A DNA stretch of 36,201 nucleotides from Candidatus Aenigmatarchaeota archaeon (GCA_030672375.1 DAOVGP010000010.1:1-36201), one strand, 5' to 3'. Shown: positions 1 to 23,746, counted from the first letter of the stretch. A program made the numbers and translations. Notes: generated by a model from the sequence alone, not told the origin.

Positions 1-229
1 CCGGTTGACGTTAGGAATATAGCCATGAAGGCCTTTGAGTTATTCAATTCATTGAAAAAATCATGATAAAAGATGAAACACTTAAATCCCTGTATAACAA
101 ATTATAGAAGATATTAGAAAGTGAGTCGGTATGACTGGTGAAGTATTTTTGCTCGGCCAAAAAGAATGAAACCTACTTTTTCTTTAGTCATAACTCTTTC
201 AGTCTTACCTTTATTGATTTCAATTATTT

Positions 230-706
230 TTGGAGGTGTGTAAAAGATGGGTGAATACCTTCTCAGGATGGAATTTAAGTAAGGAATATGAACATGTAAT
301 TGCTGCTTTCGTGGAACACAGATTACCAGAAAGGACTAAAGAAATTCTTCGAGAAGTTAATAAATACAGGGATATGTCTTACACTGCAGCTATTTACCGT
401 ATTTCTAATGATCTAAGAATTGCACCATCTACAATAAGGTGGAGTATGAAACTGTTAAGAGAATTAGGGTTGATTATATGTGGTGATGAAAAATATAGAG
501 GTGATAGAATGAGATCTTCAAACGCCGGAGAAGTAGCCATAAGACATTTGAATGGTGGAAAATATTCAAAACCAAAGGAATTTTACAGACAAAATGATAA
601 TAAAAAACAGGATGTAATTTTAGATGAAGGTTATCGTGAATCAGTCCTGAAGTTTTATAGTTATATGGACACCTTGGGGAATAGAAACTCTCAAAACTCG
701 TCTTAA
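230..706 (+). CDS. Hypothetical small protein with a possible winged-helix/HTH segment
   Basis: 158-aa ORF with a non-ATG start (the first in-frame ATG is at 374). The segment ISNDLRIAPSTIRWSMKLLRELGLI looks like an HTH recognition region. The 3' end overlaps the convergent rps10 by 66 nt, so the true extent is doubtful. Confidence 0.3.
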   Translation: MEVCKRWVNTFSGWNLSKEYEHVIAAFVEHRLPERTKEILREVNKYRDMSYTAAIYRISNDLRIAPSTIRWSMKLLRELGLIICGDEKYRGDRMRSSNAGEVAIRHLNGGKYSKPKEFYRQNDNKKQDVILDEGYRESVLKFYSYMDTLGNRNSQNSS

Positions 707-961
707 AGCCCTATCGTCCGCCTGTAAATCCACGAGTCTTTTATGGATTCTCAATTCCCATCGATCAAAAGTCGTGTTACCATGCCCAGTCCCATCTCCA
801 CACGGTGACTTCATCGGTGCAACTCTCAACTTCTTTGTCGGCAACGGAATAGGGCCCTTATAATCAACACCGAATTTTTTAGCAATCCCAATTATCTCTG
901 TACAAATCTCATCCAGTTGTTTGGGATTCCTTCCCGAGAGTTTAATTCTCGCTATCTGCAT
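641..961 (-). CDS. rps10: 30S ribosomal protein S10 (uS10)
   Basis: 106 aa. The sequence MQIARIKLSG...GPIPLPTKKLRV...RWELRIHKRLVDL is the typical archaeal S10 pattern and length. Confidence 0.9.
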   Translation of the reverse strand: MQIARIKLSGRNPKQLDEICTEIIGIAKKFGVDYKGPIPLPTKKLRVAPMKSPCGDGTGHGNTTFDRWELRIHKRLVDLQADDRALRRVLRVSIPQGVHITIKLQD

Positions 962-996
962 TCCATCACTGTGACTATATTCTGATATGGGGAGAC

Positions 997-2100
997 TTAA
1001 ATATTTTTCTGATTCTTTAAACTAATTTTTGATTCTAACAGATTAAAAATAATAAAACTGGCTATGGCAAACACTGACCCGATATACATAGTAGTTCTAT
1101 AATCTCCTAAAGATACAATTATAATAGATAAAAAAGGGCCGATTATTGAAGATAAACTTTTTGTTGAATCCAACATTGCGGATACTGTTGCCTTCTCAAC
1201 GTTTTTTTCAGTTAGATACCTTAATGAACCCACGTATAGAAATGACCATGAAACTCCTAAAAACATTTGTACTGGTAAGATGTGCCAATAGATAGTTGCC
1301 CTTGTGTACAATAAGAAAGTAACGGCTGAAAGTATCAACCCATACCTTATCAAAAAGTGAGGTTTCAACCTGTCTGTGAGAGTGTACATTATTAAAAATT
1401 GTAATAAAGAGTTGATAGAACCTATTACGCCTATCCAGAAAAAATTGGCTCCTAAAGATTGAAGATACAAAGGCCAAAAAGTCCATATCATCGATGCTCC
1501 TAGGTGACGAATAAACATGGCAGAATATACTGAGAGGTTTTTCTTGATTATTTTAGTCGGGAACAGTGGTATGTGTAAAGGCTTGTTTTTAGTCGAATTT
1601 AACCCATAAGACATTAAAAAGGAAATGAAAAACGATAAAGAACTGAAGATGAAAACACCCTTTATACTAAAGTACATTGCAATGATACCAGCCAAAGTTG
1701 CACCTAAAAACCACCCCAACGAACCAAAGGCTGAGAATTTTCCTAAGTTTTTTTTGGATTCATACACATAGGCGACTAAAGCGGCTGGAAAAATTCCTAT
1801 ACAAAATCCAGAAATTGCACGAATCATCAATAGTGAGACTTCATTCGTAATAAAGATCTGAAGGAAGAATGCTATCGATGAAGCTATCAAGCCTATTCTC
1901 AAGAATAATATTCTGGTTCCACGCTTGTCAGATGCACGACCGAATAAATATGAGGAAAAGAATAGAGCGAATGCATAGGAGGCTACTACGAGTCCTATAT
2001 AGGTGTCTGATAGTCCTAGTTCCTTAGCAAGAAGAGGTATGAACGTCCAAGAAGCATTGGCCGCAGCAAAACTCAATAGTTGGATTAAACTAGATCTCAT
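997..2100 (-). CDS. MFS-type membrane transporter
   Basis: 367 aa, hydrophobic throughout with about 10-11 predicted helices. An MFS motif-A-like string, GRASDKRGTR, follows the second helix. Confidence 0.75.
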   Translation of the reverse strand: MRSSLIQLLSFAAANASWTFIPLLAKELGLSDTYIGLVVASYAFALFFSSYLFGRASDKRGTRILFLRIGLIASSIAFFLQIFITNEVSLLMIRAISGFCIGIFPAALVAYVYESKKNLGKFSAFGSLGWFLGATLAGIIAMYFSIKGVFIFSSLSFFISFLMSYGLNSTKNKPLHIPLFPTKIIKKNLSVYSAMFIRHLGASMIWTFWPLYLQSLGANFFWIGVIGSINSLLQFLIMYTLTDRLKPHFLIRYGLILSAVTFLLYTRATIYWHILPVQMFLGVSWSFLYVGSLRYLTEKNVEKATVSAMLDSTKSLSSIIGPFLSIIIVSLGDYRTTMYIGSVFAIASFIIFNLLESKISLKNQKNI

Positions 2101-2102
2101 CC

Positions 2103-3356
2103 CTAAGTCCCTTCTTTCCAGTCAGTCAGATATTTCTCCTGTTCTTCTGTCAAACTATCTATCTTTATTTCCATAGATTCCAGTTTTAATCTTGCAACCC
2201 TATCATCGATCTCCTTAGGGACATCATAAACCTTTGGTTCAAGTTTCTTATGATTATTAGCCAAAAATTCGCTACACAACGCCTGATCAGCGAACGACAT
2301 ATCCATGACATCTGAAGGATGACCTTCAGCAGCGACTAAATTGATGATTCTACCCTTACCGAGGAGGTAAATCTTTTTTCCATTCTTCAATGTATATTCT
2401 TCAACATTTTTTCTTATCTCTCTCTTAGATTTTGATAAACTTTCTAAATCAGGAATAGATATCTCAACGTTGAAATGACCTGTATTTGCAATGATAGCAC
2501 CATCTTTCATCAATTCCATGTGTTCTTTACGGATAACATCCTTATCTCCTGTAATAGTGAGGAATACGTCTCCAATTTTAGCTGCTTCTTTCAACGGCAT
2601 AACTCTATAGCCATCCATAGCAGCTTGTAACGCTTTGATAGGATCAACTTCAGTCACAACAACATCTGAGTCCATCCCTCTCGCCCTTCTAGCAACACCA
2701 CCACCACAATAACCATACCCACATACAACGAAAGTCTTTCCTGCTAACATTATGTTGGTTGCTCTCAGTATTCCGTCTATCGTACTCTGCCCTGTCCCAT
2801 AAACATTATCAAACATTCTTTTTGTCGGGGTGTCATTAATTGCTATAACAGGAACTTTCAATGTACCGTCTTTTGCCATAGCCCTTAGTCTTATAACGCC
2901 TGTAGTAGTCTCTTCTTGACTTCCATAAAGGGTTTTTAACAAGTCCTTTCTTTTGGTATGGATTGCTGTGACAAGATCTCCACCATCATCCAAAGTTATG
3001 TTTGGATTGAAATCAAGAACTTTATTTATACACCAATAATACTCTTCACTGGTCTGCCCAGTCCAAGCGAAAACATGAATCCCTTCTTCAACCAATGCAG
3101 CCGCAACATCATCTTGAGTCGACAGAGGATTGGCTGCAGCTAGAACAACAGTAGCCCCTCCAGCTTTGAGGGTTTTCATCAATACCGCAGTCTCTTTTGT
3201 TACGTGTAAGGCTGCGCAGATGGTTAAACCTTTAAATGGCTGTTTTTTCCTAAATTCTTCCATCACCTTCATCAACACGGGCATACGACTTTCTGCCCAA
3301 TCTATGCTAAGTTTTCCTTGTTTTGCGAGTGATATATCCTTAACCTTGTGCTCCAT
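2103..3356 (-). CDS. ahcY: S-adenosyl-L-homocysteine hydrolase
   Basis: 417 aa. The N-terminus (KVKDISLAKQGKLSIDWAESRMPVLM), HVTKETAVL, the GYGYCGGGVA NAD-binding loop and a C-terminal LTEEQEKYL-type tail are all characteristic of AhcY. Confidence 0.92.
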   Translation of the reverse strand: MEHKVKDISLAKQGKLSIDWAESRMPVLMKVMEEFRKKQPFKGLTICAALHVTKETAVLMKTLKAGGATVVLAAANPLSTQDDVAAALVEEGIHVFAWTGQTSEEYYWCINKVLDFNPNITLDDGGDLVTAIHTKRKDLLKTLYGSQEETTTGVIRLRAMAKDGTLKVPVIAINDTPTKRMFDNVYGTGQSTIDGILRATNIMLAGKTFVVCGYGYCGGGVARRARGMDSDVVVTEVDPIKALQAAMDGYRVMPLKEAAKIGDVFLTITGDKDVIRKEHMELMKDGAIIANTGHFNVEISIPDLESLSKSKREIRKNVEEYTLKNGKKIYLLGKGRIINLVAAEGHPSDVMDMSFADQALCSEFLANNHKKLEPKVYDVPKEIDDRVARLKLESMEIKIDSLTEEQEKYLTDWKEGT

Positions 3357-3381
3357 GAAAAAACCCTCCTTTCCTAATAAA

Positions 3382-3954
3382 CTATTTTTTGATATATTTA
3401 ACTTTTAACAAATGAAATATCTTCTCTGAAGATTCTATTGGATCTAATTTATTAGATTCAATAATTAAGTCTGGTTTTTCTGGTTCTTCGTATTCGACAT
3501 CCACACCAATTACTTCTCCTAATCCATTGGCTTCTATTCCGTTCTCCTTTCTCTTCAAAGCCTTTTTGTATAAATTACTCAATACCAAATTATCTTTTCT
3601 CTTAGATTCTCTTTCCATGGAAACATCTAATGGAGCTTTGATATAGACTTCAACAAAATTAGGTATGAACTCCCTCGCCATCTCCCTCCATTTCCTTCTA
3701 TGACCAGTAGCATCGATTATAACATTCACACCATTTTCTGTCAACAATTTACTGACCAATACTACAGCCCTATAAACATAACCCCTTTCTTCCTCAGTGT
3801 ATTTTCTTTTCGGTGTCAATACTTCTCTAATCTCATCCATTTCTAGATGCTCAGCTCGTATGTTGTTTTGTTTTAATTTTTTCAGCAGTTCTCTTGCTCT
3901 TGCTGTTTTTCCAGAACCAGGTAAACCAGTCAACCAAACAACCCATCCTTTCAT
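3382..3954 (-). CDS. P-loop kinase, adenylylsulfate-kinase (CysC)-like fold; substrate unknown
   Basis: 190 aa. It has the Walker A motif VWLTGLPGSGKT near the N-terminus, and its size and layout match APS-kinase-family proteins. Confidence 0.55.
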   Translation of the reverse strand: MKGWVVWLTGLPGSGKTARARELLKKLKQNNIRAEHLEMDEIREVLTPKRKYTEEERGYVYRAVVLVSKLLTENGVNVIIDATGHRRKWREMAREFIPNFVEVYIKAPLDVSMERESKRKDNLVLSNLYKKALKRKENGIEANGLGEVIGVDVEYEEPEKPDLIIESNKLDPIESSEKIFHLLKVKYIKK

Positions 3955-3958
3955 AGTA

Positions 3959-4774
3959 TCAACTCAATAGAGATACGACTTCAGAATAAATTTCTTCATT
4001 CGGAGCTGCCACATAATTAACATTCATGTTAAAATCGACTTCGTATTCAGTCCAATCTTTTCCATTCAAATCTTTGACAATTCCTCCCGCTTCTCTCACT
4101 ATCAATTGACCAGCAGTTGAATCTAGAGTTCTTTTACCTCCCAATGCTATACATGCATCAGCAACTCCTTCAGCGAATAAACACAAACTCAAACAAGCAG
4201 AACCAAGCATTCTTACAGACTTAGATTTCTCACCCAATTTTACTATTCCTTGAAAATTCCCCTTTCTATTAAAAGAAGCTATATCTATCAAAAAACATCC
4301 CCTTCTCTCTTCACTGACATGAATTCCTTTACCGTTCTTGAAGGCTCCTTTTCCTTTAACAGCATAATAATCATCACCGTTTACTAGGTTTTTTATGTAC
4401 CCGACCTCTATTCCTTCAATTTTTCCAGACAGGTCTCCAATTGAGATTGAAGTTGAATAAATAGGGATTCCAAACATAGAATTTTTAGAACCATCTAAAG
4501 GATCAACTACTATCATGACTTCTGGTTTATCACCAACAGTTACTCTACCTATTTCTTCGGATACAAACTCAAAACTCTTCCCTGTAGATTTAAAATGATT
4601 TAATATCAACTTCTCAGCTAAATCATCCAAGAAAGAAGTTTTATCACCACTAAAACCTATCCTCAGAATTTTTTTTCTCTCTTCTTTATCTGAATACTTC
4701 TTTACCTCAGTAAAAACTTCTTTACCGATATCTTGACATAACTTTAACCAGTATTCATGATCCATTTCAATCAT
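3959..4774 (-). CDS. Inositol-monophosphatase/FBPase/CysQ superfamily sugar-phosphate phosphatase
   Basis: 271 aa. It carries the metal-binding signature VVDPLDGSKN and a C-terminal GG...D region typical of the IMPase fold. Its start overlaps the stop of the upstream kinase (ATGA-type junction). Confidence 0.75.
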   Translation of the reverse strand: MIEMDHEYWLKLCQDIGKEVFTEVKKYSDKEERKKILRIGFSGDKTSFLDDLAEKLILNHFKSTGKSFEFVSEEIGRVTVGDKPEVMIVVDPLDGSKNSMFGIPIYSTSISIGDLSGKIEGIEVGYIKNLVNGDDYYAVKGKGAFKNGKGIHVSEERRGCFLIDIASFNRKGNFQGIVKLGEKSKSVRMLGSACLSLCLFAEGVADACIALGGKRTLDSTAGQLIVREAGGIVKDLNGKDWTEYEVDFNMNVNYVAAPNEEIYSEVVSLLS

Positions 4775-5888
4775 TCAAGTATGTATTAATTTTTTTGATT
4801 TTAAACTCATCCTCGTCCAAGACGTTATTGATGAAGTTTATTATCCTTTTCTTGTTCTCGTTTATAGTGTTTATTCTCTCTTCCTTAAAACCATGTTTCC
4901 TCATCCATTCTTGAGAATAGAACATAGGATGAATACAAACCAGTCCTCTGAATGCAAAGAACAAAGGTGAGACTTTGAACATTTCTGAATCGTTTCTTTT
5001 GTTAAAATACTCCTTGAAAAATAATTCTACTAGTTCCTTGAAAGGATCCCTTAACTCACCGAAAGACAACACAGAATAATTGATGAAATTCATTGTCAAA
5101 CAAGTCGTATCATCTGCAGGTTCGCCATACCTGAACCTGCTCCTATCCAGAATAACAAGTTCTCCGTCATTAAACCAGATGTTACTAGGATAAAAATCTC
5201 CATGTATTGTTCTTAATCTGTGGTGTTCATCCTTAATCTTATCCCACCACTCAACCATTTTCTTTACTATTTCTACTAAATCTTTTCTATCAACAAATTC
5301 AAGATTGTCAGGAAAGGTGTCTATGACACCCATCGTTAGTTCTCCATGCCCAACAAAGTCTCTGACGACTCTTCTATATAGGTGGTCTCCATTATCTCCA
5401 TTATAGTTGATAGAATGAATTTCTGCCAAGTATTTTGCCAGCGTTTTGACTCTTTCTTTATTCTCACCCTTCAACACCCCCTCTTCCCTGATATTATCAA
5501 GGTCGTTCCAATAATCTTTTCCTTTACCTTCTTCCATTACTATGAAAAAATCATTGGGATTACCAATTGATAAAAGTTTCCCATTATTTTGTATGGAACC
5601 AACATTTAAAACCTTAACGTGTCTAGGTAACAAATTGTAATCCATCAGAGCTCGTATAAGTACGCTTGCCCTGTCAGACGGATAATCATGTCCAAATCCT
5701 TCTCCTCTCAAAGTCTTCAGGATATATCTTTTTTCATTACCAGTTTTATCCACAGTATCGATAGAAAACCCCAAACCATGAAATCCTTCCCCTAATTTTT
5801 GAATGTTTTTTATCTTAATTTCAGAACCAAAAAAATCAGAAAGGTATTCTTTTAAGGCTTCCTTATTTATCTGCGTCATTTCGACCAA
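4767..5888 (-). CDS. APH/choline-kinase-fold small-molecule kinase (the superfamily containing MtnK); substrate unknown
   Basis: 373 aa. The catalytic-loop string IHGDFYPSNIWF followed by ILDRSR...GEPADD matches the HGDxxxxN...D pattern of the aminoglycoside phosphotransferase/MTR kinase superfamily. Confidence 0.7.
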   Translation of the reverse strand: MVEMTQINKEALKEYLSDFFGSEIKIKNIQKLGEGFHGLGFSIDTVDKTGNEKRYILKTLRGEGFGHDYPSDRASVLIRALMDYNLLPRHVKVLNVGSIQNNGKLLSIGNPNDFFIVMEEGKGKDYWNDLDNIREEGVLKGENKERVKTLAKYLAEIHSINYNGDNGDHLYRRVVRDFVGHGELTMGVIDTFPDNLEFVDRKDLVEIVKKMVEWWDKIKDEHHRLRTIHGDFYPSNIWFNDGELVILDRSRFRYGEPADDTTCLTMNFINYSVLSFGELRDPFKELVELFFKEYFNKRNDSEMFKVSPLFFAFRGLVCIHPMFYSQEWMRKHGFKEERINTINENKKRIINFINNVLDEDEFKIKKINTYLND

Positions 5889-5929
5889 ACGTTATATAAA
5901 AATTATTTAATCAATAAATATTTGGTTAC

Positions 5930-6586
5930 ATGGAAAAATTCAATTGTTGGTTACCTACTTGGGTTGAATTACACGAAAACATCAGAGATATCGCGAAGAA
6001 AATTAAGAAGGATAATTATCGACCTGACATTGTAATTGCTTTATCGAGAGGGGGTTTTATACCTGCCAGAGTCATCTGTGATTTGATGATAATCAAGGAT
6101 TTGCTCTCGGTAAAAGTTGACCACTGGGGTATAACTGCCACTAAAGACGGAAAAGCACATCTGAGGTATCCTATTGATGTTGATCTAACTGGAAAGAAAG
6201 TCCTTATTGTTGACGATATCACAGATACTGGAGAGAGTATGGCCATTGCAAAAGAATTCGTAGAAAAACTCAACCCCGAAGAAATAAGAACAGCAGCAAT
6301 ATTCCACATCAAAACTTCAAAATTTATTCCAAATTATTACAGCGAGGAAATAGATTGGATTTGGGTGATGTGGCCTTGGAATTATATTGAAGACATGTGT
6401 AACATTGTACCTAAAGTATTGGATGAAAATAAGGGTAGTTCTATCAAAGAAATCAAGAAAAATTTAAAAGAAAATTTTAAGATCGATGTATCAGAAGAAC
6501 AAGTCATAGAAATATTGGGCGAACTTGTTGTAAGGAATGTTGCTACAGAAAATGGTGAGGGTTGGATAAGGGGAAGAATAGATTAA
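5930..6586 (+). CDS. Purine phosphoribosyltransferase (archaeal Hpt/Gpt/Apt-type) with a C-terminal extension
   Basis: 218 aa with the PRPP-binding motif KVLIVDDITDTGESM. It is the only plus-strand gene inside the salvage cluster. Confidence 0.8.
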   Translation: MEKFNCWLPTWVELHENIRDIAKKIKKDNYRPDIVIALSRGGFIPARVICDLMIIKDLLSVKVDHWGITATKDGKAHLRYPIDVDLTGKKVLIVDDITDTGESMAIAKEFVEKLNPEEIRTAAIFHIKTSKFIPNYYSEEIDWIWVMWPWNYIEDMCNIVPKVLDENKGSSIKEIKKNLKENFKIDVSEEQVIEILGELVVRNVATENGEGWIRGRID

Positions 6587-7362
6587 ACTTTTGCGCCTTT
6601 TAAAGCATCTTTACAGATGCATTTTCTCTCTTCGGGAATGTTCTTTATAGTTTCTTTTAATATAGCCTTTACTTTGTGTTGGTTTTCCTTCATAACTCTA
6701 ATTACTTCTTCAACATCCACGGGAGTTTCTGCCCAAACATCATAGTCGGTTATTGTGGCTATTATAGCAAAACATATCTCTTTCTCTCTTGCTAATATTG
6801 CCTCTGGTACTCCAGTCATCCCTATCAATTCGGCAAATTTTCTGAACATCCTACTCTCTGCTCTCGTAGAAAATCTAGGACCTTCGATACAAAGATAAGT
6901 TCCTTTATCGTGATGTTCTATTCCCAATTTCTCACAAGATTCTATCAAAACTTTTCTCAATTCTGGACAAAACGAATCGGCCAAAGAAACGTGAGTAACA
7001 TCACCCGTATCATAAAAAGTCGTCCTAGTTTTCTTAAAATCTATGAACTGATCTGGTATAACAATTTGTCCAGGTTTATATTCCTCTCTTAAAGAACCAG
7101 TAGCACATGAAGCTAATATTCTTGTCACACCAAGTTTTTCAAATCCATGTATGTTTGCTTTGAAGTTTATGTCATGAGGAGGTATCTTGTGTCCTTTACC
7201 ATGTCTTGATAAGAATGCAACTTTTCTATTCTCAAAATCCCCGACCAAGTAAGAATCAGAAGTTTTTCCATACGGCGTTTTCACATTGACAGGTCTTATG
7301 TTTTTAAAAATTCCTGGATCATAAACTCCAGTTCCTCCAATTATAGCAATCTCGACTTCCAT
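6583..7362 (-). CDS. mtnP: 5'-methylthioadenosine/purine nucleoside phosphorylase (PNP family 2)
   Basis: 259 aa. The strings IAIIGGTGVY, FLSRHGKGHKIPPHDINFKANI and GMTGVPEA are the typical MTAP pattern. Confidence 0.87.
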   Translation of the reverse strand: MEVEIAIIGGTGVYDPGIFKNIRPVNVKTPYGKTSDSYLVGDFENRKVAFLSRHGKGHKIPPHDINFKANIHGFEKLGVTRILASCATGSLREEYKPGQIVIPDQFIDFKKTRTTFYDTGDVTHVSLADSFCPELRKVLIESCEKLGIEHHDKGTYLCIEGPRFSTRAESRMFRKFAELIGMTGVPEAILAREKEICFAIIATITDYDVWAETPVDVEEVIRVMKENQHKVKAILKETIKNIPEERKCICKDALKGAKV

Positions 7363-7366
7363 TTAA

Positions 7367-7951
7367 TCACCTTAATTTTTGTGCTTTTTTCCAGGTATTC
7401 AAAGTCAATTCACCGACTTCCTTCATCGTCCTACCAAGACAAACAAACCCACCATTCTTTATAACAATAAAATTGTTATTATCCAAAACAGCCAATACCT
7501 CATTTGTCACTTCCATTGTTCCAGGTGGTTGTTTCTCTTCTGTAACAGGTGATTTCAATTTTTCAGCATTTTTTGTAATAGAATTATCATGCCCATGGAA
7601 TATCGCATTGACATCACCTCGTGTATTGTAAATTAGAAAATGCATGATAGACTCACATGATGGCTCTAGTTTACCCTCGACATAAAAAGTGTTGCTGTAA
7701 ACATCATAATTATCTACGTAAACAAAATTATCGTTGCTTAAGTTTTCTTTTGTTTTCAAAGTCGTCCCTGTTATTATAAACCCGTCTTCTGTTCTGAAAC
7801 TTAAATTACCAGTAGATGCTCCATCTCTGGGCAAAGTCAAATTATTTTTATTGAATTGATTGCACCAATGTTTTAACTCTTCAATATTTTTGTCGTTAGG
7901 AATTTCATCAGAAATAAAAATCGTCTTGAACTTTACTCTTTTTTCTTGCAT
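7367..7951 (-). CDS. Class II (metal-dependent) aldolase/adducin-N family protein (MtnB/Ald2/FucA-like)
   Basis: 194 aa. STGNLSFRTEDGFIITGT, EPSCESIMHFLIY, AIFHGHD and IKNGGFVCLGRTMKEV follow the conserved block order of class II aldolases. Confidence 0.7.
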   Translation of the reverse strand: MQEKRVKFKTIFISDEIPNDKNIEELKHWCNQFNKNNLTLPRDGASTGNLSFRTEDGFIITGTTLKTKENLSNDNFVYVDNYDVYSNTFYVEGKLEPSCESIMHFLIYNTRGDVNAIFHGHDNSITKNAEKLKSPVTEEKQPPGTMEVTNEVLAVLDNNNFIVIKNGGFVCLGRTMKEVGELTLNTWKKAQKLR

Positions 7952-7987
7952 TGAACCACTTGAATAATTTTTTAATCATACGTGGAT

Positions 7988-9013
7988 TTATCTATGTGGT
8001 TCAACTATTACTTTAATAGATTCATTAGCTTCAGCAACCAACTGGAAACCTTTACCAATTTCTTCCAAACTTAATCTGTGTGTTATCATATCCTTAACGT
8101 TTATTTTACGAGATTGAATAAATTCTATAGCTTCCTCAATATCCACAGGGGCAGCAGCGTATGTTGTTGTTAAAGTCGCTTGACTCATCCAAAACTCATT
8201 GAACGGTAAAGGAATTTCAACACCTGAATCAGTCGGAGCAAAGAATAGAATAGTACCTCCACCATCCACAGATTTTAAAGCTTGTTCTATAGCTGATACA
8301 GCCCCTGTACAAACTATAACACGATCCGCTAATCTTCCTTCATTAACTTCTCGTACACGTGCAGATACATCTTCTTTAGCATTAATAACTTCATCTGCTC
8401 CAAACTTCTTCGCCGCTTTCATCCGATATTCGTTTATATCAGTCGCAATTATTTTTTCAGCCCCAAGTACACGAGCCAATTGAATATGAAGTAATCCAGA
8501 CAATCCACTCCCTAACACGACTACAGTATTACCTTTTTTTAGATCAGCTCTTCTCCGTCCTCTTATAACACAACCCAAAGGTTCTATAAACGTTCCCTCT
8601 TCAAAAGACATTTCATCAGGCAACAAGAATGTCCCTAATTCTACATTTATCTTTGGCACTCGAATAAATTCAGAAAAACCGCCAGGATCAAAGTTAGTTG
8701 TATGTAAAGTCCTACAAATAGTATGGTGCCCATTCAAACAATATCTACATTCATTGCAAGGAACATGGTGCGATACAAAAACTCTATCTCCCACTTTGAA
8801 ATCTTTCACATTCTTTCCAATCTCAACGATCTCTCCACTCATTTCATGTCCTAGAACTCTTGGTGCTTTTTTAATTCGGTACCACTCCATTACATCGCTA
8901 CCACAAATTCCGCATGCCATAGTTTTTATTAATAATTCATCCGGACCAATCTTTGGTTTTGGCATTTCTTCTATTCTAACGTCTTTATTGTTGTAATACA
9001 TTGCTACGCGCAT
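7988..9013 (-). CDS. Zn-dependent medium-chain alcohol/polyol dehydrogenase
   Basis: 341 aa. It has the GICGSDV and GHEMSGEIVEIG zinc motifs, a structural-Zn Cys cluster (CNECRYCLNGHHTIC) and a VLGSGLSGL Rossmann loop. Confidence 0.85.
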   Translation of the reverse strand: MRVAMYYNNKDVRIEEMPKPKIGPDELLIKTMACGICGSDVMEWYRIKKAPRVLGHEMSGEIVEIGKNVKDFKVGDRVFVSHHVPCNECRYCLNGHHTICRTLHTTNFDPGGFSEFIRVPKINVELGTFLLPDEMSFEEGTFIEPLGCVIRGRRRADLKKGNTVVVLGSGLSGLLHIQLARVLGAEKIIATDINEYRMKAAKKFGADEVINAKEDVSARVREVNEGRLADRVIVCTGAVSAIEQALKSVDGGGTILFFAPTDSGVEIPLPFNEFWMSQATLTTTYAAAPVDIEEAIEFIQSRKINVKDMITHRLSLEEIGKGFQLVAEANESIKVIVEPHR

Positions 9014-9033
9014 AACATCAACAAATTTATGTG

Positions 9034-9831
9034 TTACTTTTTCTTTCCTTTCTTAAGACCTTCAAACAATTCATTGGCTTCTTTTGGTGTGGCATCTTCA
9101 TGAATTATCGATCTTAATGCTTTTATCATAGCAACTGGATGTTCGTTTTTCCAGACGTTTCTTCCTAAGTTCACACCAATAGCACCTTTTTGCATGCCAT
9201 CATACACGAATTCAAACACTTCAAGTTCTGTGTCTACTTTAGGTCCCCCTGCCATGACAACAGGAACTGGACATCCTTCTACAACTTTTTCAAAATTTTC
9301 ACACCAGTATGTTTTTACTATTCTTGCACCTAGTTCAGCAGCAATTCTACAACATAGAGCAAGATAACGAGCTGTTCTTTTTTCCATTTCTTTACCTACA
9401 GCAGTAACTGCCATCACTGGCATACCATATTCTTCAGCTTCATCAACGAGTCTCGCGAGATTTAACAGTGTTTGATGTTCATACTTACTTCCAACAAATA
9501 TAGAAAGGCCTACGGCAGATGCGTTAAGGCGTACAGCTTCTTTTATAGAAGTAGTAATTCCCTCATTCGCCAAATCTTCACCAACCACACTAGTTCCACC
9601 AGAAACTCTCAAGATGATTGGTTTAGTATTATTCGGATCTATACAATTACGCAAAACTCCCTTAGTAACAAAAATCGCATCACAATAGGGAAGTAATGGT
9701 TTTACAGTCTCGCCTGGTTTTTCCAATTTTGTGGTTGGTCCTTGAAAATATCCATGATCTATCGGCAAGAATAAACAATGACCATCTTTCTGTATCAATC
9801 TTGACAACCTATTTTTCATTCCCCAATTCAT
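9034..9831 (-). CDS. DhnA/FbaB-type class I aldolase (archaeal FBP aldolase / ADH-synthase / LsrF family)
   Basis: 265 aa. N-terminal LFLPIDHGYFQGP and a central IVKTYW segment (candidate Schiff-base Lys) resemble the DeoC/LacD-like class I aldolase family. Confidence 0.78.
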   Translation of the reverse strand: MNWGMKNRLSRLIQKDGHCLFLPIDHGYFQGPTTKLEKPGETVKPLLPYCDAIFVTKGVLRNCIDPNNTKPIILRVSGGTSVVGEDLANEGITTSIKEAVRLNASAVGLSIFVGSKYEHQTLLNLARLVDEAEEYGMPVMAVTAVGKEMEKRTARYLALCCRIAAELGARIVKTYWCENFEKVVEGCPVPVVMAGGPKVDTELEVFEFVYDGMQKGAIGVNLGRNVWKNEHPVAMIKALRSIIHEDATPKEANELFEGLKKGKKK

Positions 9832-9850
9832 GGGAACACCTCCTTAAATA

Positions 9851-10915
9851 TTAATCAAATAATCTTTTAATCTCATTGGGTTTAATAATTCCTTTCTCTG
9901 TTATTAATCCTGTCACATATTTTGCAGGAGTAACATCGAAAGCAGGATTTTTTACGTGAGATCCTTTAGGTACTATTCTGATTTTCTTCAATTCCCCTTG
10001 AGAGAATCCCCACATATGAGTTACTTCTTCCTCATCTCTTTCCTCAATCGGTATGTCTTTTCCATATTTAATGCTCATATCAATGGTGGTAGTTGGCAAA
10101 GCCACATAAAACGGAATCTTGTTTTCTTTTGCAATCACTGCTTTTTCATAAGTTCCTATCTTGTTCGCAACATCACCTTTTGCAGTTGTTCTATCTGACC
10201 CAACGATACAAATATCAATTTCTCCGTTTCTCATGTAGTGACCAGCAGCATTATCCACTATAACAGCATGATCAATTCCTTCTTGTAACATTTCCCATGC
10301 AGTTAATCTTGCACCTTGACATCTTGGTCTTGTCTCATCTACAAAAACAAATATCTTTTTCCCTCCATAATGAGCAAATCTCATTGGAGCTAAAGCTGTA
10401 CCATAATCAACAGTCGCCAAAGCCCCAGCATTGCAATGTGTTAAAACACTATCCCCATCCTTAATCAATTTGCTACCATACACACCAATATTTTTACATT
10501 TTTCAACATCTTCATCCGCAATACTGTTAGCTTCTTTAATTGCAATTTCTCTTTTTTCTTTTACTGAAATTCCTTTTTCTATCGATTTCAAAACTCTGTC
10601 TATCGCATAGAACAAGTTATATGCAGTAGGTCTGGTATTCTTTAGTGTCTCACTCGCTTTCCTAACATAATCATCAAATCCTGTGACCGGAGCCTCCATA
10701 CATGCTTGAGCCATCCCAAACCCTGCTGTTGCTCCGATAGCAGGAGCTCCCCTTACAATCATTGTTCTGATTGCTTCAGCAGTTTGTTTATGATCAAAAG
10801 AAGAATAAATCTCAAATCTATGTGGTAATTTTGGTTGGTCTATCATCTTGACTATATGACTTTCCATCCAGACGGTTCTAAACTCTTTTATCTGATTACC
10901 AATCTTAACTCTCAT
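9851..10915 (-). CDS. mtnA: Methylthioribose-1-phosphate isomerase-type (eIF-2B-related) sugar-phosphate isomerase
   Basis: The motifs RGAPAIG, THCNAGALATVDYGTALAP and GSDRTTAKGDVANKIGTY are MtnA-type. I chose the ATG at 10915; the ORF track extends to a TTG at 10936. Confidence 0.85.
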   Translation of the reverse strand: MRVKIGNQIKEFRTVWMESHIVKMIDQPKLPHRFEIYSSFDHKQTAEAIRTMIVRGAPAIGATAGFGMAQACMEAPVTGFDDYVRKASETLKNTRPTAYNLFYAIDRVLKSIEKGISVKEKREIAIKEANSIADEDVEKCKNIGVYGSKLIKDGDSVLTHCNAGALATVDYGTALAPMRFAHYGGKKIFVFVDETRPRCQGARLTAWEMLQEGIDHAVIVDNAAGHYMRNGEIDICIVGSDRTTAKGDVANKIGTYEKAVIAKENKIPFYVALPTTTIDMSIKYGKDIPIEERDEEEVTHMWGFSQGELKKIRIVPKGSHVKNPAFDVTPAKYVTGLITEKGIIKPNEIKRLFD

Positions 10916-10966
10916 AAACCGTAATATGAGTTCCAAATTTTAAAAATAATAGGAAAGGAGTTAAGA

Positions 10967-12283
10967 TTACTTTGCCTTATTCTTATCAGACTTTGATTTC
11001 TTACTAGGTTCTCTTTTTACTACTTCTAGAACAACTCCAGCAGCAACAGTCATTCCCATGTCTCTTATTGCAAACCTTGCCAATTGTGGAATATCTGCTT
11101 GTTTTTCTACAACCATAGCATGTGTTGGAACTACTTTAATCCTTGCAGCATCACCAGTCTTGATGAAATCTGGTTTTTCTTTCACTACTTGACCTGTCTT
11201 CGGATCGATTTTTGCGATTATCTCTTCTATCTTACAAGCGACAGATGCTGTTCCTAAGTGAAATACAGGTGTATATCCTGCAGTCATAACAGTTGGATGT
11301 TGAAGCACTATTATCTGCGCAGTAAATTCCTTTACTACTGTTGGTGGATTATCTGGACGTCCTGCAACATCTCCTCTTTTGATATCACCTTTTCCGACAC
11401 CACGAATATTAAAACCAATATTATCTCCTGGTCTAGCTTCTGGTTGTTGTTTGTGGAACATCTCGATTGACTTAACTTCACCCTTTGCACCAGAAGGTTC
11501 GAATATCAATGTATCCCCTTGTTTCAAAATACCAGTTTCTACTCTGCCAACAGGAACTGTTCCTACCCCTGTTACCGTATAAACATCCTGAATTGGAATC
11601 CTTAACGGTTTATCAATCGGTTGTTTTGGTGGAGTTATAGTAGCATCCATTGCCTCAACCAATGTTGGCCCTTTGTACCAAGACAAAGATTCAGATTTCT
11701 TGAAGACATTATCCCCTTTCAAACCAGACAGAGGAACGAAAGGCATATTGTCAACCTTAAAACCTATAGAACTCAATAATTTCTTTGTCCCTTCTACGAC
11801 TTCATCATATCTTTTTTGATCGAAATTTGCACTGTCCATCTTATTCACAGCAACAACGAGTTGATTTACACCCATAACTTTCATCAAGAATGCATGTTCC
11901 TTTGTTTGTTCTTGAACACCTTCCCCTGGTTTTGCAGAAACGACGAATATAGCGGCATCAGCCTGAGAAGTTCCAGTGATCATGTTCTTAACAAAGTCCC
12001 TGTGACCAGGACAATCGATTATAGTGTAGTAATATTTCTTAGTATGGAACGGACGATGCATTATATCAATAGTAAGACCACGTTCTCTCTCTTCCTTCAA
12101 TTGATCCATGACATAGGCAAACTCCCAAGTTTCTCTCTTCAATTCCTTAGCTGTGTCTTTTAACTTTCTCAATTGGTCGTCTCTTATCGCCCCAGAATCG
12201 TAAAGTAGTCTTCCGACTAGAGTAGATTTACCATGATCTACGTGTCCAGCAGTAATGATGTTGATTTTTGGTAATTCTGCCAT
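10967..12283 (-). CDS. tuf: Translation elongation factor EF-1alpha (aEF1A)
   Basis: 438 aa with [17 protein letters not shown] and NKMD GTPase motifs. A GGAGGTG Shine-Dalgarno sequence lies upstream. The protein has an unusual Lys-rich C-terminal tail. Confidence 0.96.
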
Positions 12284-12339
12284 TAGTTCACACCTCCTCC
12301 GACACTATTTTATATTCAATCATGTTTTTAAATATGTTT

Positions 12340-14529: not shown

Positions 14530-14588
14530 TTTTCTTCACGTAGATAAACTATCATTTTTAAAAGAAACTAATTTAAATGTTTTGATTT

Positions 14589-14795
14589 TTATCCAATATA
14601 TTTTACATCCTCGTCTACGTTAACTTTTCCTTTCTGCCTTTCAATCGCTTTCTTCAACTTCGCAACAAAAGCTTCCATCATAGGTAATGGTAAATACAAT
14701 TTGATTATCCTTTCCTTTCCTCTAGGAGAAAAACACATCAATTCCAAACAGAACATATTTCTTTTCCATTTTATCGAGAAAGCCTTTATCTGCAT
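14589..14795 (-). CDS. Hypothetical 68-aa protein between rps7 and fusA
   Basis: It is the only ORF in a 298-nt gap of an otherwise compact operon and lies on the same strand as its neighbours. I recognise no family. Confidence 0.3.
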   Translation of the reverse strand: MQIKAFSIKWKRNMFCLELMCFSPRGKERIIKLYLPLPMMEAFVAKLKKAIERQKGKVNVDEDVKYIG

Positions 14796-14827
14796 AAAAG
14801 AATATTTTGTTTGAGTTATTTAATCGT

Positions 14828-15427
14828 TTATCTCGCTCCACTCGCTTCTCTTTCAATTCTTTCCTTCTCTTTTATTGCAGTAGATTTAGAAGCATCATTC
14901 TTGTATGCATAGAATATCTCGTTTGTTAACGCGTCTGCCATAGTTTCTTTCTTCCCAAAGGATTTTCTGTAGGCAGATTGAACTATTATGGTAAAGGCCT
15001 TATCAACTCTTCTCTGTGGCGAAGTAATAACAGCCTTTCTAACTATGATCCCGCCCATCTGGTATGAGCTTATTTCTTCCCTTAATGCTGCATTCTCAAT
15101 CGCCCTGACAAGGATTTCGATTGGGTTTTCTTTTGTTCTTTCTTCCAATTTTTCGAATACTTTTTTTATTATATTTAGTATTGTTTGTGTCTTACCAACA
15201 TTTCTGCCAGATGACAACAGATGTTTTTTTCCTCTATGCCCAGGGACCATGAGTTTGTTTACGAGTCTTTCAACTATATTCACCTTAGATTTATGGAATT
15301 TATACTGGCTATACCTACCACCAGTCTTTGGAATAATGACTGGCTCTAAGTTTATGTAAGGCTTTAAGCCAAGGTCTTTTACTTCTACGTTGAAACTCCA
15401 CTTGTTGAATAATTTAAATTCTATCAT
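14828..15427 (-). CDS. rps7: 30S ribosomal protein S7 (uS7)
   Basis: 199 aa. LVNKLMVPGHRGKKH...A and the C-terminal IKEKERIEREA...R are typical of archaeal S7. It sits in the conserved position after rps12. Confidence 0.92.
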   Translation of the reverse strand: MIEFKLFNKWSFNVEVKDLGLKPYINLEPVIIPKTGGRYSQYKFHKSKVNIVERLVNKLMVPGHRGKKHLLSSGRNVGKTQTILNIIKKVFEKLEERTKENPIEILVRAIENAALREEISSYQMGGIIVRKAVITSPQRRVDKAFTIIVQSAYRKSFGKKETMADALTNEIFYAYKNDASKSTAIKEKERIEREASGAR

Positions 15428-23498: not shown

Positions 23499-23500
23499 TT

Positions 23501-23746
23501 TTAACACTCTATTACGATTCTATAATAAACCGATTCTTTTGTTGCTTCACTCTTTCTGATTATCTTGATGAGGTCGCCAACTTTTGCAGCTAAAGCACAA
23601 GCGATAGGATCTGACTTCAATAACTTGGGAAATTGGCTCATTTTTTTTATTCCATACTTCTTAATAACATCATTTTTTTCATCTTCCGAGAGAATTATAT
23701 GTTTAGGAACTATTTTATGGTCAAATATGTTTATCTTATTCTTCAC
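23501..23746 (-). CDS. rpoH: DNA-directed RNA polymerase subunit H (Rpb5-like)
   Basis: 81 aa. DHKIVPKHIILSEDE...FPKLLKSDPIA...GDLIKIIRKS...YYRIV is the RpoH pattern. The start is GTG, preceded by a GGTGA Shine-Dalgarno sequence. Confidence 0.87.
   Translation of the reverse strand: MKNKINIFDHKIVPKHIILSEDEKNDVIKKYGIKKMSQFPKLLKSDPIACALAAKVGDLIKIIRKSEATKESVYYRIVIEC

Follow-up and report, generated by a model that had tools for sequence, protein, structure and literature searches.

The interval between tuf and rps10 in this small-genome Candidatus Aenigmatarchaeota archaeon may be a lineage-specific composite locus of Aenigmarchaeota-type DPANN, built from two blocks and devoted to disposal of the adenosyl by-products of SAM. 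We hypothesize that its first block runs a version of the DHAP shunt that is oxidative and depends on CoA, through a zinc dehydrogenase and an LsrF-like enzyme. Taken together, this assignment of the locus and this mechanism have a probability of about 0.4 in our estimation. The window is the whole stretch of DNA analyzed, 36,201 nucleotides in length.

The initial annotation described 11 genes separating tuf from rps10, ten of them on one strand with minimal spacers, and the ORF listing with Pfam agrees. The interval contains exactly 11 ORFs, ten on the minus strand and the purine phosphoribosyltransferase (PRTase) alone on the plus strand, with spacing from an 8-bp overlap up to about 50 bp and a 51-bp AT-rich spacer after tuf, before MtnA. 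Genes for EF-2, S7, S12, NusA, L30e, and RNAP subunits lie upstream. All 11 family calls made at the outset were correct at the superfamily level (Pfam, NCBIfam); those for the DhnA aldolase, class II aldolase, dehydrogenase, PRTase, and APH kinase are refined below. Every gene of the module is under purifying selection (dN/dS 0.04–0.25 each). In order along the locus the features are:

10967–12283, minus strand: tuf (EF-1 alpha; Pfam GTP_EFTU and eEF1A domains), the upstream boundary of the insertion
9851–10915, minus strand: MtnA, 5-methylthioribose-1-P / 5-deoxyribose-1-P isomerase (TIGR00512, 407.6 bits, cutoff 279)
9034–9831, minus strand: LsrF-like class I (Schiff-base) enzyme of the DhnA family (NF006081, 368.8 bits, cutoff 297)
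7988–9013, minus strand: Zn-dependent medium-chain dehydrogenase of the polyol/threonine-dehydrogenase clade (Pfam ADH_N and ADH_zinc_N)
7367–7951, minus strand: highly divergent class II aldolase-fold protein whose metal site is degenerate (Pfam Aldolase_II, 55.7 bits)
6583–7362, minus strand: MtnP, 5'-methylthioadenosine / 5'-deoxyadenosine phosphorylase (TIGR01694, 307.9 bits, cutoff 274.85)
5930–6586, plus strand: purine PRTase (Pfam Pribosyltran), the sole opposite-strand gene
5880–5929, no strand: AT-rich divergent spacer of 50 bp between the PRTase and the kinase, containing TTATATAAAAATTATTTAA; likely a putative promoter region for the second block
4767–5879, minus strand: APH-fold small-molecule kinase (Pfam APH, 32.5 bits), distant from all named families
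3959–4774, minus strand: IMPase/FBPase-family sugar-phosphate or nucleotide phosphatase (Pfam Inositol_P, 114.5 bits)
3382–3954, minus strand: APS-kinase-like P-loop kinase with altered substrate motifs (TIGR00455, 118.1 bits, cutoff 138.7)
2103–3356, minus strand: AhcY, S-adenosyl-(or S-inosyl-)homocysteine hydrolase (TIGR00936, 651.3 bits, cutoff 497.6)
997–2100, minus strand: MFS transporter (Pfam MFS_1, 124 bits), a variable accessory gene
641–961, minus strand: rps10 (Pfam Ribosomal_S10), the downstream boundary of the insertion

The MtnA ORF reaches a TTG at 10936, and the ATG at 10915 (354 aa) is the more likely start, as in the 354-aa calls of two relatives (L001 and L002). For the APH-fold kinase the ATG at 5879 (370 aa) is more likely, matching gene calls and lengths in relatives.

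Most or all of the gene order is preserved on at least nine contigs from relatives, of which two carry the label Aenigmarchaeota. The order recurs between tuf and rps10 in eight loci (L002, L096, L097, L102, L103, L106, L107, and L119) and also in five fragments (L098–L101 and L105), at 54–98% protein identity; because the same order recurs in relatives, the arrangement is not due to chance, and the module is conserved at this site. Identity of tuf is 87% in L002 and 98% in L096, and that of rps10 is 87–96% in most relatives and 69% in the divergent L109. The MFS gene is present in L096, L097, L102, L107, and L119 and absent from L002, L103, and L106. Conservation does not extend to the locus as one consolidated hub, as it was originally described. 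In L104, L108, and L109 the MtnA block is missing but the APH-IMPase-APS-kinase-like block, sometimes accompanied by AhcY, is present, indicating two separable blocks.

The reading of the interval as a SAM by-product and nucleoside salvage locus holds up well, with MtnA, MtnP, and AhcY above their curated cutoffs and the module conserved. On a further model, NF006334, MtnP scores 381.9 bits against a cutoff of 382. The closest match of the PRTase is the Sulfolobus GpT-1 purine PRTase 4trb (170 bits, E 5e-49), which we take to be an adenine PRTase, and the enzyme of the interval is probably of the adenine type. In L097 MtnP and the PRTase are exchanged for a DadD/MtaD-like amidohydrolase (deaminase) and a methylthioinosine (MTI)-phosphorylase-like enzyme (NF006599, 235 against a cutoff of 223). 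The same Pfam families occupy the swapped front-end position in L119, where there is an extra gene for spermidine synthase, and the front end of L102 consists of a divergent phosphorylase alone. MtnA, the LsrF-like gene, and the dehydrogenase are unmoved in L097 and L119 despite the swap. The exchanged front end and the L119 spermidine synthase thus argue for salvage of SAM by-products.

The protein first called a class I DhnA aldolase is of the LsrF type. It shares about 50% of its residues with E. coli LsrF and scores 263 bits to the LsrF structure 3gkf vs 143 bits to the ADH synthase MJ0400. Eight residues (D25, H26, K173, Y175, G195, G196, G223, and R224, equivalent to LsrF D57, H58, K203, Y205, G226, G227, G253, and R254) are invariant in 121 LsrF-like sequences, a family with 74–92% identity across bacterial and archaeal phyla. 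The Schiff-base lysine, Asp57, and the phosphate site of E. coli LsrF are all kept, and both proteins are without the catalytic tyrosine of FBP aldolase and ADH synthase. Asp251 of LsrF, beside Lys203, was reportedly proposed as the proton donor in a 2009 structure paper. Its place is taken here by N221, with asparagine in 119 of the 121 family members, and the chemistry may therefore differ from that of E. coli LsrF.

The dehydrogenase finds its best PDB matches in sorbitol dehydrogenase, ketose reductase, and L-threonine 3-dehydrogenase. Motifs read from its sequence are C37, H56, E57, E144, a Cys4 site at 86–100, GSGLSG at 168, and D192, the last typical of NAD use. Sorbitol and threonine dehydrogenases oxidise secondary alcohols, methyl carbinols included. 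An ortholog (58–77% identity) adjoins the LsrF-like gene in 59–60 of 80 genome loci, and these adjacent pairs come from over 15 lineages of bacteria and archaea. In independent lineages (L058, L069, and L091) the gene immediately upstream of the pair is MtnA or resembles it; that of L058 (NPL-UPA2) reaches 436 bits on TIGR00512, and at L069 and L091, from Omnitrophota and Planctomycetia, the pair shares an operon with genes for a class II aldolase, an ALDH, and radical-SAM proteins. MTAP genes occur within 6 kb of the pair in Bathyarchaeia and Dehalococcoidales loci. Counting against the route proposed below, no MtnA, MtnP, or aldolase gene was found within 6–10 kb at about 65 of the 80 loci, and the nearest neighbors of most pairs are heterogeneous.

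From these data we propose the following route, in which substrates and step order are predicted. In block A (from MtnA at 9851–10915 down to 5930), MtnP would phosphorolyse MTA and 5'-deoxyadenosine to adenine and a pentose-1-phosphate, with the adenine recaptured by the PRTase. MtnA would convert the pentose-1-P to a ketose-1-P (5-deoxyribulose-1-P or methylthioribulose-1-P), which the NAD-type polyol dehydrogenase may then oxidise at the C4 hydroxyl. Oxidised in this way, 5-deoxyribulose-1-P would yield 3-hydroxy-2,4-pentanedione-5-phosphate (P-HPD). As follows from the structures themselves, P-HPD is 4-dehydro-5-deoxyribulose-1-P and is constitutionally identical to the established LsrF substrate. 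LsrF reportedly turns P-HPD and CoA into DHAP and acetyl-CoA, as described in 2014. The LsrF-like Schiff-base enzyme would likewise transfer the acetyl group of P-HPD to CoA, giving DHAP and acetyl-CoA, so that free aldehyde would never be released. The aldolase-fold protein, whose metal site is degenerate, would be a homolog of the shunt aldolase that has been retained here and that some relatives can do without.

Block B comprises the APH-fold kinase, the IMPase-type phosphatase, the APS-kinase-like kinase, AhcY, and the MFS transporter; AhcY would remove SAH, and the APH-fold kinase probably adds a phosphate to C1 of a free pentose. The kinase gave no match to the MtnK model of NCBIfam, and its family profile reaches amicoumacin kinase (E 2.5e-5) ahead of MtnK (E 0.019). 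Top Foldseek matches of its AF2 model (pLDDT 92) are MtnK 2pyw and 2pup (TM 0.60, 15% identity), suggesting a likeness to MtnK in fold only. K58, H229, D231, N236, and D248 are invariant in the family. The phosphatase scores 220.3 bits on NF009321, below the cutoff of 264, and is closest in the PDB to the archaeal FBPase/IMPases PH1897, AF2372, and MJ0109. The P-loop kinase matches the archaeal APS kinase 7yq0 (104 bits) but differs from APS kinase in LDGD changed to LEMD, an SP motif changed to GH, and insertions in the lid.

In a conventional DHAP shunt an aldolase would cleave (5-deoxy/methylthio)ribulose-1-P to DHAP and acetaldehyde or methylthioacetaldehyde, and the Zn-dehydrogenase would reduce the aldehyde to an alcohol. 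This pairing of class II aldolase and dehydrogenase was central to the initial annotation, and we now consider it doubtful. All the required folds (MtnP, MtnA, aldolase, dehydrogenase) are in the interval, and class II aldolase-family genes recur beside LsrF-dehydrogenase pairs (for example at L054, L056, L064, L065, L076, and L092). The aldolase-fold protein itself has an AF2 model (pLDDT 91) nearest to FucA and DrdA (TM 0.70–0.72), keeps H119, H121, and Glu100, and belongs to the same family (47% identical) as the Bacteroidales L003 aldolase, which overlaps MtnA and has an intact HHH triad. Its gene is under purifying selection (dN/dS 0.09–0.11), and the protein may therefore still be catalytic, in which case the dehydrogenase could be its aldehyde reductase. 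However, Gly167 replaces the third zinc histidine, the L002 clade lacks all three, the gene is absent from the L119 module, and NCBIfam aldolase, MtnB, and epimerase models all fall far below cutoff on the protein (none above 42 bits). Among about 101 homologs the triad is HHH in 29, lacks the third histidine in 37, and is wholly replaced in about 33, so that about 70% of the family has lost canonical ligands. The dehydrogenase is closer to the secondary-alcohol and polyol enzymes than to aldehyde reductases of the AdhP/Ahr type, and its tight partner is the LsrF-like gene, not the aldolase. The LsrF-like enzyme could instead serve as the class I aldolase of such a shunt, since the catalytic Asp and Lys shared by DhnA aldolases are both retained in it, but the catalytic tyrosine of those enzymes is missing.

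A route from nucleosides to central carbon like that of haloarchaea, using a phosphorylase, ribose-1-P kinase, isomerase, bisphosphate phosphatase, aldolase, and reductase, was also suggested originally and is very improbable. Every broad activity class has one member in the interval, and bacterial homologs of the APH-fold kinase adjoin PfkB ribo/nucleoside-kinase-like genes. The likeness nevertheless fails family by family. The isomerase falls on the MtnA side in the HMM comparison (TIGR00512 passed; R15P-isomerase model TIGR00511 219.8 bits, below the cutoff of 314.1), and the Ru1P-aldolase model gives 35.5 against 300. The haloarchaeal route employs a uridine-phosphorylase-type enzyme, PfkB kinase, e2b2 isomerase, HAD phosphatase, Zn FucA, and a G1P-dehydrogenase-like reductase (PMC9700705), whereas kinase, phosphatase, and reductase here are of APH-fold, IMPase, and Zn-MDR type. 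The separation of the kinase-phosphatase-kinase block from the isomerase block in three relatives also speaks against this route.

Two further explanations concern the LsrF-dehydrogenase pair, and both seem improbable to us. The pair, with the class II aldolase, might make or use 6-deoxy-5-ketofructose-1-P (DKFP), from which archaeal AroA'/AroB' enzymes build aromatic amino acids, with 5'-deoxyadenosine supplying the carbon; the dehydrogenase would oxidise, for example, lactaldehyde or 6-deoxyhexulose-1-P, and the LsrF-like protein would be a DKFP synthase or an ADH-synthase-like transaldolase. Its homology to MJ0400 fits. A prephenate dehydratase gene between the aldolase-like and LsrF-like genes in Aenigmatarchaeota L020 (Pfam), and a chorismate mutase/prephenate dehydratase-like neighbor cluster at three bacterial loci (judged from sequence), hint at a connection with the synthesis of aromatic amino acids. 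DKFP synthase is reported to be missing from many archaea with the AroA'/AroB' route (PMC9012536), and a connection between 5'-deoxyadenosine salvage and DKFP has been proposed, with 5'-deoxyadenosine carbon as the feed in Methanocaldococcus jannaschii (PMC6079011, PMC10986504). Against this, the ADH-synthase model TIGR01949 gives 192.7, short of its cutoff of 299, and the LsrF model is the one that passes; the catalytic tyrosine of ADH synthase is absent, and AroB' genes are not among frequent neighbors of the pair. The pair is moreover widespread among bacterial phyla with the canonical DAHP route and among DPANN archaea, which are generally without amino acid biosynthesis.

Alternatively, the pair could clean up phospho-diketopentoses of the P-DPD/P-HPD type formed spontaneously from ribulose phosphates or made by RuBisCO as a side product, a form of AI-2 degradation chemistry without signalling; its place in the module would then reflect pentose-phosphate traffic, not 5-deoxy sugars. 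DPD can form non-enzymatically from pentose phosphates. The passing LsrF equivalog model is consistent with this, as are the mostly solitary position of the pair in housekeeping contexts, as is often the case for repair genes, and the absence of LuxS and lsr genes from the neighborhoods examined. Clean-up leaves the invariable dehydrogenase partner and the repeated MtnA adjacency unexplained, however, and no LsrG-type isomerase was seen.

We therefore return to the oxidative, CoA-dependent shunt as our preferred reading, with the LsrF-like enzyme as the proposed step of C–C cleavage. Sugar splitting at this locus probably relies on that enzyme and its partner dehydrogenase, a pair whose genes are neighbors in many bacterial and archaeal genomes.

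The eleven genes of the module lie in an archaeal segment with a GC content of ~35%, and the window carries a minus-strand string of archaeal transcription and translation genes encoding RpoB'', a RpoB'-RpoA' ORF, RpoA'', L30e, NusA, S12, S7, EF-2, and EF-1 alpha. The boundaries of the insertion, and the two genes on which much of the interpretation turns, are as follows.

641-961: rps10, one boundary of the insertion
7988-9013, minus strand: Zn-dependent medium-chain dehydrogenase
9034-9831, minus strand: DhnA-family enzyme, termed LsrF-like here
10967-12283: tuf, the other boundary of the insertion

Exactly 11 ORFs occupy the tuf-rps10 interval, ten on the same strand and one, a phosphoribosyltransferase (PRTase), opposed, with spacers ranging from an 8-bp overlap to ~50 bp. 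Every superfamily name proposed in the initial annotation was recovered by Pfam and NCBIfam. The starts of MtnA and of the APH-fold kinase are better placed at internal ATGs at 10915 and 5879, respectively, in agreement with the gene calls and lengths of homologs. The insertion, originally recognized in the window alone, recurs in loci from other genomes (designated by L numbers), with identities of 54–98% between module proteins. The order tuf-MtnA-LsrF-like-dehydrogenase-aldolase-like-phosphorylase-(PRTase)-APH kinase-IMPase-APS-kinase-like-AhcY-(MFS)-rps10 was found in L002, L096, L103, L106, and L107. L097 and L102 share it apart from a swapped front end, and L098–L101 and L105 hold fragments of it. 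L119, a 610-kb contig from a MAG labelled Aenigmarchaeota with the same layout as the window, keeps this order minus the aldolase-like gene. Homologs at 60–90% identity carry the NCBI label Candidatus Aenigmarchaeota or Aenigmatarchaeota. Ratios of dN/dS were 0.04–0.25 for every gene (against L096 and L097), and together with the recurrent order in relatives these values indicate that the arrangement is real and lineage-wide.

Gene content within the module varies among relatives. The MFS gene is variably present, and in L097 and L119 MtnP and the PRTase are replaced by a divergent phosphorylase and an Amidohydro_1 protein, with those of L119 assigned from precomputed Pfam only. The phosphorylase of L097 passes the methylthioinosine-phosphorylase model (235 vs 223) and its amidohydrolase belongs to the 5'-deoxyadenosine (5'-dAdo)/MTA deaminase group. 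L102 has at least the divergent phosphorylase at this position, where the ORFs on either side are unannotated. The L119 module also includes a gene for spermidine synthase, an MTA-producing enzyme. L104 and L108 carry a trio of APH kinase, IMPase, and APS-kinase-like genes, with or without AhcY, and no MtnA block, and in L109 the trio lies between tuf and rps10 alongside GMP synthase and BacA. This variation shows that the module consists of two blocks at a common insertion hot spot, one holding MtnA, the LsrF-like gene, the dehydrogenase, the aldolase-like gene, MtnP, and the PRTase, and the other the two kinases, the IMPase, AhcY, and the MFS transporter.

Several further features of these loci were observed. 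The L119 module (158-8841) is interrupted by foreign genes, with a 1024-aa S8 peptidase and a dockerin ORF between MtnA and the LsrF-like gene and an arrestin-like 151-aa ORF between the latter and the dehydrogenase; an 87-aa cupin is also present. Across 641-14529 of the window, dS from the closest relative, L096, spans a >10-fold range between neighbouring genes, with tuf, MtnA, and the dehydrogenase at 0.04–0.07 and the LsrF-like gene, EF-2, PRTase, and MFS at 0.39–0.66, which suggests recombination mosaicism between strains. An Rfam scan found no riboswitch in the module, and a sigma-70 promoter and terminator scan gave background levels, these models being bacterial and inapplicable to archaea. 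Elsewhere in the window, a single 1441-aa ORF (17687-22012, minus strand) contains Rpb2 domains 4–7 (RpoB', aa 4–594) followed directly by Rpb1 domains 1–5 (RpoA', aa 600–1419), an apparent rpoB'-rpoA' gene fusion, with RpoB'' (22014-23507) and RpoA'' (16588-17730) encoded separately. A 472-aa ORF (24309-25727, minus strand) has no Pfam match, and a 158-aa ORF (230-706, plus strand) overlapping rps10 on the opposite strand has no family match and is probably spurious. Rfam placed two RNA genes.

23940-24077, minus strand: 5S rRNA
24169-24283, minus strand: tRNA of 115 nt, probably intron-containing

ARAGORN differs from Rfam here, calling an odd 95-nt ‘tRNA-???’ at 23758-23852.

The salvage enzymes are securely assigned. 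MtnA scores 407.6 bits against TIGR00512 (cutoff 279) and 442.5 against NF004326 (cutoff 271), the MTA/5'-dAdo phosphorylase MtnP scores 307.9 bits against TIGR01694 (cutoff 274.85), and the adenosylhomocysteinase AhcY scores 651.3 bits against TIGR00936 (cutoff 497.6). The best match of the PRTase is Sulfolobus GpT-1 (4trb, 170 bits), which we take to be the adenine PRTase of that organism. These matches, together with the front-end swaps among relatives, support the general reading offered initially, namely recycling of MTA, 5'-dAdo, and SAH with recapture of the base. Local producers of two of these compounds are encoded nearby on the plus strand, an Elp3-type radical-SAM/GNAT protein (33775-35340) for 5'-dAdo and a SAM-dependent methyltransferase (31964-32599) for SAH.

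The LsrF-like enzyme passes the NCBIfam LsrF equivalog model NF006081 (368.8 vs cutoff 297) and is ~50% identical to Escherichia coli LsrF, the P-HPD (3-hydroxy-2,4-pentanedione-5-phosphate) thiolase of the E. coli/Salmonella lsr AI-2 operon, over 257 residues (263 bits), compared with 143 bits for ADH synthase and 97 for the Thermoproteus FBP aldolase. The Schiff-base Lys203 of LsrF (K173 in the window) and Asp57 (D25) are kept and are invariant in 121 family members, as is the phosphate site His58/Gly226/Gly227/Gly253/Arg254 (H26/G195/G196/G223/R224). Tyr205 of LsrF is also kept, and the catalytic Tyr of aldolases is absent, as it is from LsrF. Differences from the enterobacterial enzyme include the lack of the N-terminal ~33 residues and the replacement of Asp251, the proposed proton donor beside the catalytic Lys, by Asn221 in the window and by Asn in 119 of the 121 members, so judged from sequence the chemistry may differ from that of LsrF. 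As to genomic setting, LsrK, LsrG, and LsrACDB were seen neither in the window nor among the frequent neighbours of 80 loci, no lsrR context was seen, and the partner is instead a Zn-dehydrogenase. The family counts 536 relatives in a species-level genome collection and is conserved at 74–92% identity over many lineages, some of them not anaerobes, including archaea (Bathyarchaeia, Hadarchaea, Thermoplasmata, Methanocellales) and bacteria (Dehalococcoidia, Anaerolineae, Thermodesulfobacteriota, Brocadiales, Nitrospinota, Omnitrophota, Verrucomicrobiota, and others).

In the best 80 loci of the 536 relatives, an ortholog of the dehydrogenase (58–77% identical) adjoins the LsrF-like gene in 59–60, and the LsrF-like gene is nearly always just upstream. 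The closest PDB matches of the dehydrogenase are sorbitol dehydrogenase, ketose reductase, and L-threonine 3-dehydrogenase, all oxidisers of secondary alcohols. Its catalytic Zn ligands, read from the sequence as C37, H56, E57, and E144, correspond to the Cys-His-Glu/Glu set of polyol dehydrogenases, and Asp192 is typical of NAD use. The conserved adjacency and this kinship indicate that the dehydrogenase belongs functionally with the LsrF-like gene and not with the class II aldolase. In 16 of the 80 loci, from bacteria and Bathyarchaeota (L028, L038, L039, L056, L065, L076, L079, and L092 among them), a conserved ~71-aa ORF with four cysteines and no Pfam match stands immediately before the LsrF-like gene; the window lacks this ORF.

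Outside Aenigmarchaeota the pair is mostly alone and its contexts are varied. When 141 nearest neighbours of such pairs were assigned to Pfam families, Radical_SAM appeared six times, NAD kinase four times, and Aldolase_II three times, and no partner dominated. Some loci depart from this pattern. In L058, from candidate division NPL-UPA2, the gene immediately upstream of the pair is a bona fide MtnA (436 bits), and in L069 (Omnitrophota, 6606-15412) and L091 (Planctomycetia, 4173-12911) the pair stands in an operon behind an MtnA-like isomerase, a class II aldolase, and an aldehyde dehydrogenase. Both of these loci have an RlmN-type radical-SAM gene downstream. It follows the dehydrogenase directly in L091, whereas in L069 a DUF748 protein and an AMP-binding enzyme come first. 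Upstream annotation covers L091 alone of the two; there an SCP2 domain is fused to the aldolase, and the string begins with a B12-radical-SAM gene and an amidohydrolase_2. Two loci of Bathyarchaeia and one of Dehalococcoidales have MTAP genes within 6 kb of the pair, and class II aldolase-family genes flank it in nine or more others.

From family chemistry and gene association we infer an oxidative, CoA-dependent chain that would run from MtnP through MtnA and the dehydrogenase (NAD+) to the LsrF-like enzyme (CoA). Oxidation of the C4 hydroxyl of 5-deoxyribulose-1-P (CH2OP-CO-CHOH-CHOH-CH3) by the dehydrogenase would give CH2OP-CO-CHOH-CO-CH3, which is P-HPD, the substrate of LsrF. As Marques et al. 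reportedly found in 2014, LsrF with CoA splits P-HPD into DHAP and acetyl-CoA. If the LsrF-like enzyme does the same, 5'-deoxyadenosine would yield adenine, DHAP, acetyl-CoA, and NADH. Methylthioribulose-1-P and ribulose-1-P could by the same steps yield methylthioacetyl-CoA and glycolyl-CoA. The proposed logic is analogous to that of L-threonine 3-dehydrogenase and 2-amino-3-ketobutyrate CoA ligase (Tdh/Kbl), in which a Zn-dependent medium-chain dehydrogenase turns a methyl carbinol into a methyl ketone, giving a 1,3-dicarbonyl-type compound that a second enzyme then splits with CoA to free acetyl-CoA. Tdh models are the best NCBIfam matches of the module's dehydrogenase (203 bits), although these scores are far under the cutoff (458), and in the module the cleaving enzyme is a Schiff-base TIM barrel rather than a PLP enzyme and the presumed substrate a sugar phosphate.

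The association of MtnA, the LsrF-like enzyme, and a polyol dehydrogenase points to an oxidative, thiolytic form of 5-deoxyribose salvage that can be tested and has apparently not been described. We put at roughly one in three the chance of a broader reading, in which the pair, with relatives in >500 species-level genomes, supplies the missing downstream half of 5'-dAdo (possibly MTA/ribose) salvage where Ald2/DrdA is lacking, via C4 oxidation to P-HPD and cleavage with CoA, and enterobacterial AI-2 degradation is a late recruitment of older housekeeping chemistry. In the library searched, nothing relevant linked LsrF or P-HPD to 5-deoxyribose, MtnA, or the DHAP shunt, nor to Bathyarchaeota, Dehalococcoides, anammox, or DPANN.

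The class II aldolase-fold protein bears directly on the more conventional interpretation. Its 194-aa AF2 model (pLDDT 91) has FucA and DrdA (5-deoxyribulose-1-P aldolase) as best structural matches (TM 0.70–0.72), and curated models score it at ≤42 bits, none near cutoff. Within its family of ~100 proteins, the His-His-His metal triad is present in bacterial members, including one (L003, Bacteroidales) from an overlapping MtnA-aldolase gene pair, and not in Aenigmarchaeota members. The full triad is kept in 29 of ~101 homologs, the third His is lost in 37 including the window protein (H119, H121, Gly167), and in ~33 including L002 all three are replaced by Cys, Asn/Lys, and Tyr. These residues make metal-dependent aldol cleavage of the canonical kind doubtful. 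Purifying selection on the gene (dN/dS 0.09–0.11) implies retention for some function; these values and the confident structure model led us to reject a decaying pseudogene.

In the DHAP shunt for 5-deoxyribose disposal, MtnP, or MtnN with MtnK, is followed by MtnA and the class II aldolase Ald2/DrdA (Beaudoin 2018, PMC6079011; North and co-workers). Read this way, as initially proposed, an aldolase would cleave the ketose-1-P and the dehydrogenase would reduce the resulting aldehyde; either aldolase-type protein of the module could be that aldolase. The entry steps stand, as MtnP and MtnA pass their models, and the module resembles bacterial shunt clusters further in its proposed DHAP end product and in the clustering of a class II aldolase-fold gene, joined in some relatives by a transporter. 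The aldolase step does not hold up as well, since the metal site is degenerate (Gly167) and the gene, which the shunt would have constant in the cluster, is dispensable, being missing from L119's otherwise syntenic module. The constant downstream genes are instead the LsrF-type Schiff-base enzyme and the polyol-type dehydrogenase, the proposed products are acetyl-CoA and NADH with no free aldehyde, and the host is archaeal with the locus embedded between tuf and rps10. A role for the pair in repairing spontaneously formed phospho-diketopentoses is a further rival to the thiolytic salvage that we propose.

A connection of the pair to DKFP and aromatic amino acids is another rival. A prephenate dehydratase gene lies beside the pair in L020 (Pfam), a neighbour cluster from three bacterial loci resembles chorismate mutase/prephenate dehydratase by sequence only, and the origin of DKFP is unexplained in many archaea. 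Methanocaldococcus jannaschii is said to process 5'-dAdo through the DadD deaminase, MTI phosphorylase, and MTR-1-P isomerase, and then to DKFP. The deaminase and MTI-phosphorylase-like front end ahead of MtnA in L097 and L119 matches the start of this route, and the module's downstream enzyme is homologous to ADH synthase; the window, in contrast, uses MtnP and a PRTase, and the downstream enzyme is LsrF-type and not AroA'-type. The resemblance to the haloarchaeal non-carboxylating pentose bisphosphate pathway noted in the initial annotation is one of outline (phosphorylase, kinase, IF-2B-family isomerase, phosphatase, aldolase fold, reductase) and fails family by family. The published pathway employs an e2b2 R15P isomerase, a PfkB ATP-R1P kinase, a HAD RuBP phosphatase, a Ru1P aldolase, and a G1PDH-like glycolaldehyde reductase (Sato et al. 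2022, PMC9700705), whereas in the module the kinase is APH-fold, the phosphatase belongs to the IMPase family, and the place of the reductase is taken by a Zn-dependent medium-chain dehydrogenase, and its families differ at every step except the isomerase and aldolase superfamilies. Even there, MtnA fails the R15P-isomerase model TIGR00511 (219.8 vs cutoff 314.1) and the aldolase-like protein scores 35.5 bits against the Ru1P aldolase model NF053831 (cutoff 300).

The second block is less readily assigned. The APH-fold kinase has an intact catalytic HGD...N...D motif (H229, D231, N236, and D248 invariant), is remote from all named families, and matches no NCBIfam MtnK model; its family profile matches MtnK at E 0.019 only, and its confident structure model has MtnK as top Foldseek matches (TM 0.60) by a small margin over other APH kinases. 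Bacterial homologs (~40–44% identical, from Nitrospirota and others; L009–L012, L116) always adjoin or overlap a PfkB kinase, for which the best models in the copies scanned (L009, L011) are nucleoside kinase, ribokinase, and R1P kinase, all sub-cutoff. The module's kinase may reasonably be guessed to be a pentose anomeric kinase. The IMPase belongs to the archaeal FBPase/IMPase type but scores under the model threshold. The adjacent P-loop kinase resembles archaeal APS kinases, and we considered whether it is an authentic APS kinase, the IMPase then being a CysQ-type PAP phosphatase. Against this, it scores under threshold (TIGR00455, 118.1 vs cutoff 138.7), its motifs are altered (LDGD to LEMD in LDGD..R, SP to GH, with lid insertions), and no sulfate adenylyltransferase lies within the locus. 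A PhnN-like ribose-1,5-bisphosphokinase feeding PRPP to the PRTase was rejected given the lack of PhnN similarity and the phosphorylation of hydroxyls by APS-kinase-fold enzymes.

To our knowledge, disposal of 5'-deoxyadenosine is required of every organism that has radical-SAM enzymes. The known clusters for 5-deoxyribose disposal by the DHAP shunt are ‘far from ubiquitous’, and what takes their place elsewhere is an acknowledged gap (PMC6079011). LsrF homologs in syntrophs and ammonia-oxidising archaea have been read as quorum-sensing genes from annotation alone (PMC10787695, PMC11442133). If the proposed chain operates, all five carbons would be conserved as DHAP and acetyl-CoA, with one NADH gained and a toxic aldehyde avoided, and a very conserved, widespread pair now read as quorum-sensing (‘AI-2 thiolase’) would be reassigned. 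For DPANN biology, the module means that a reduced genome spends ~10 kb, amid its translation genes, on the recycling of SAM waste.
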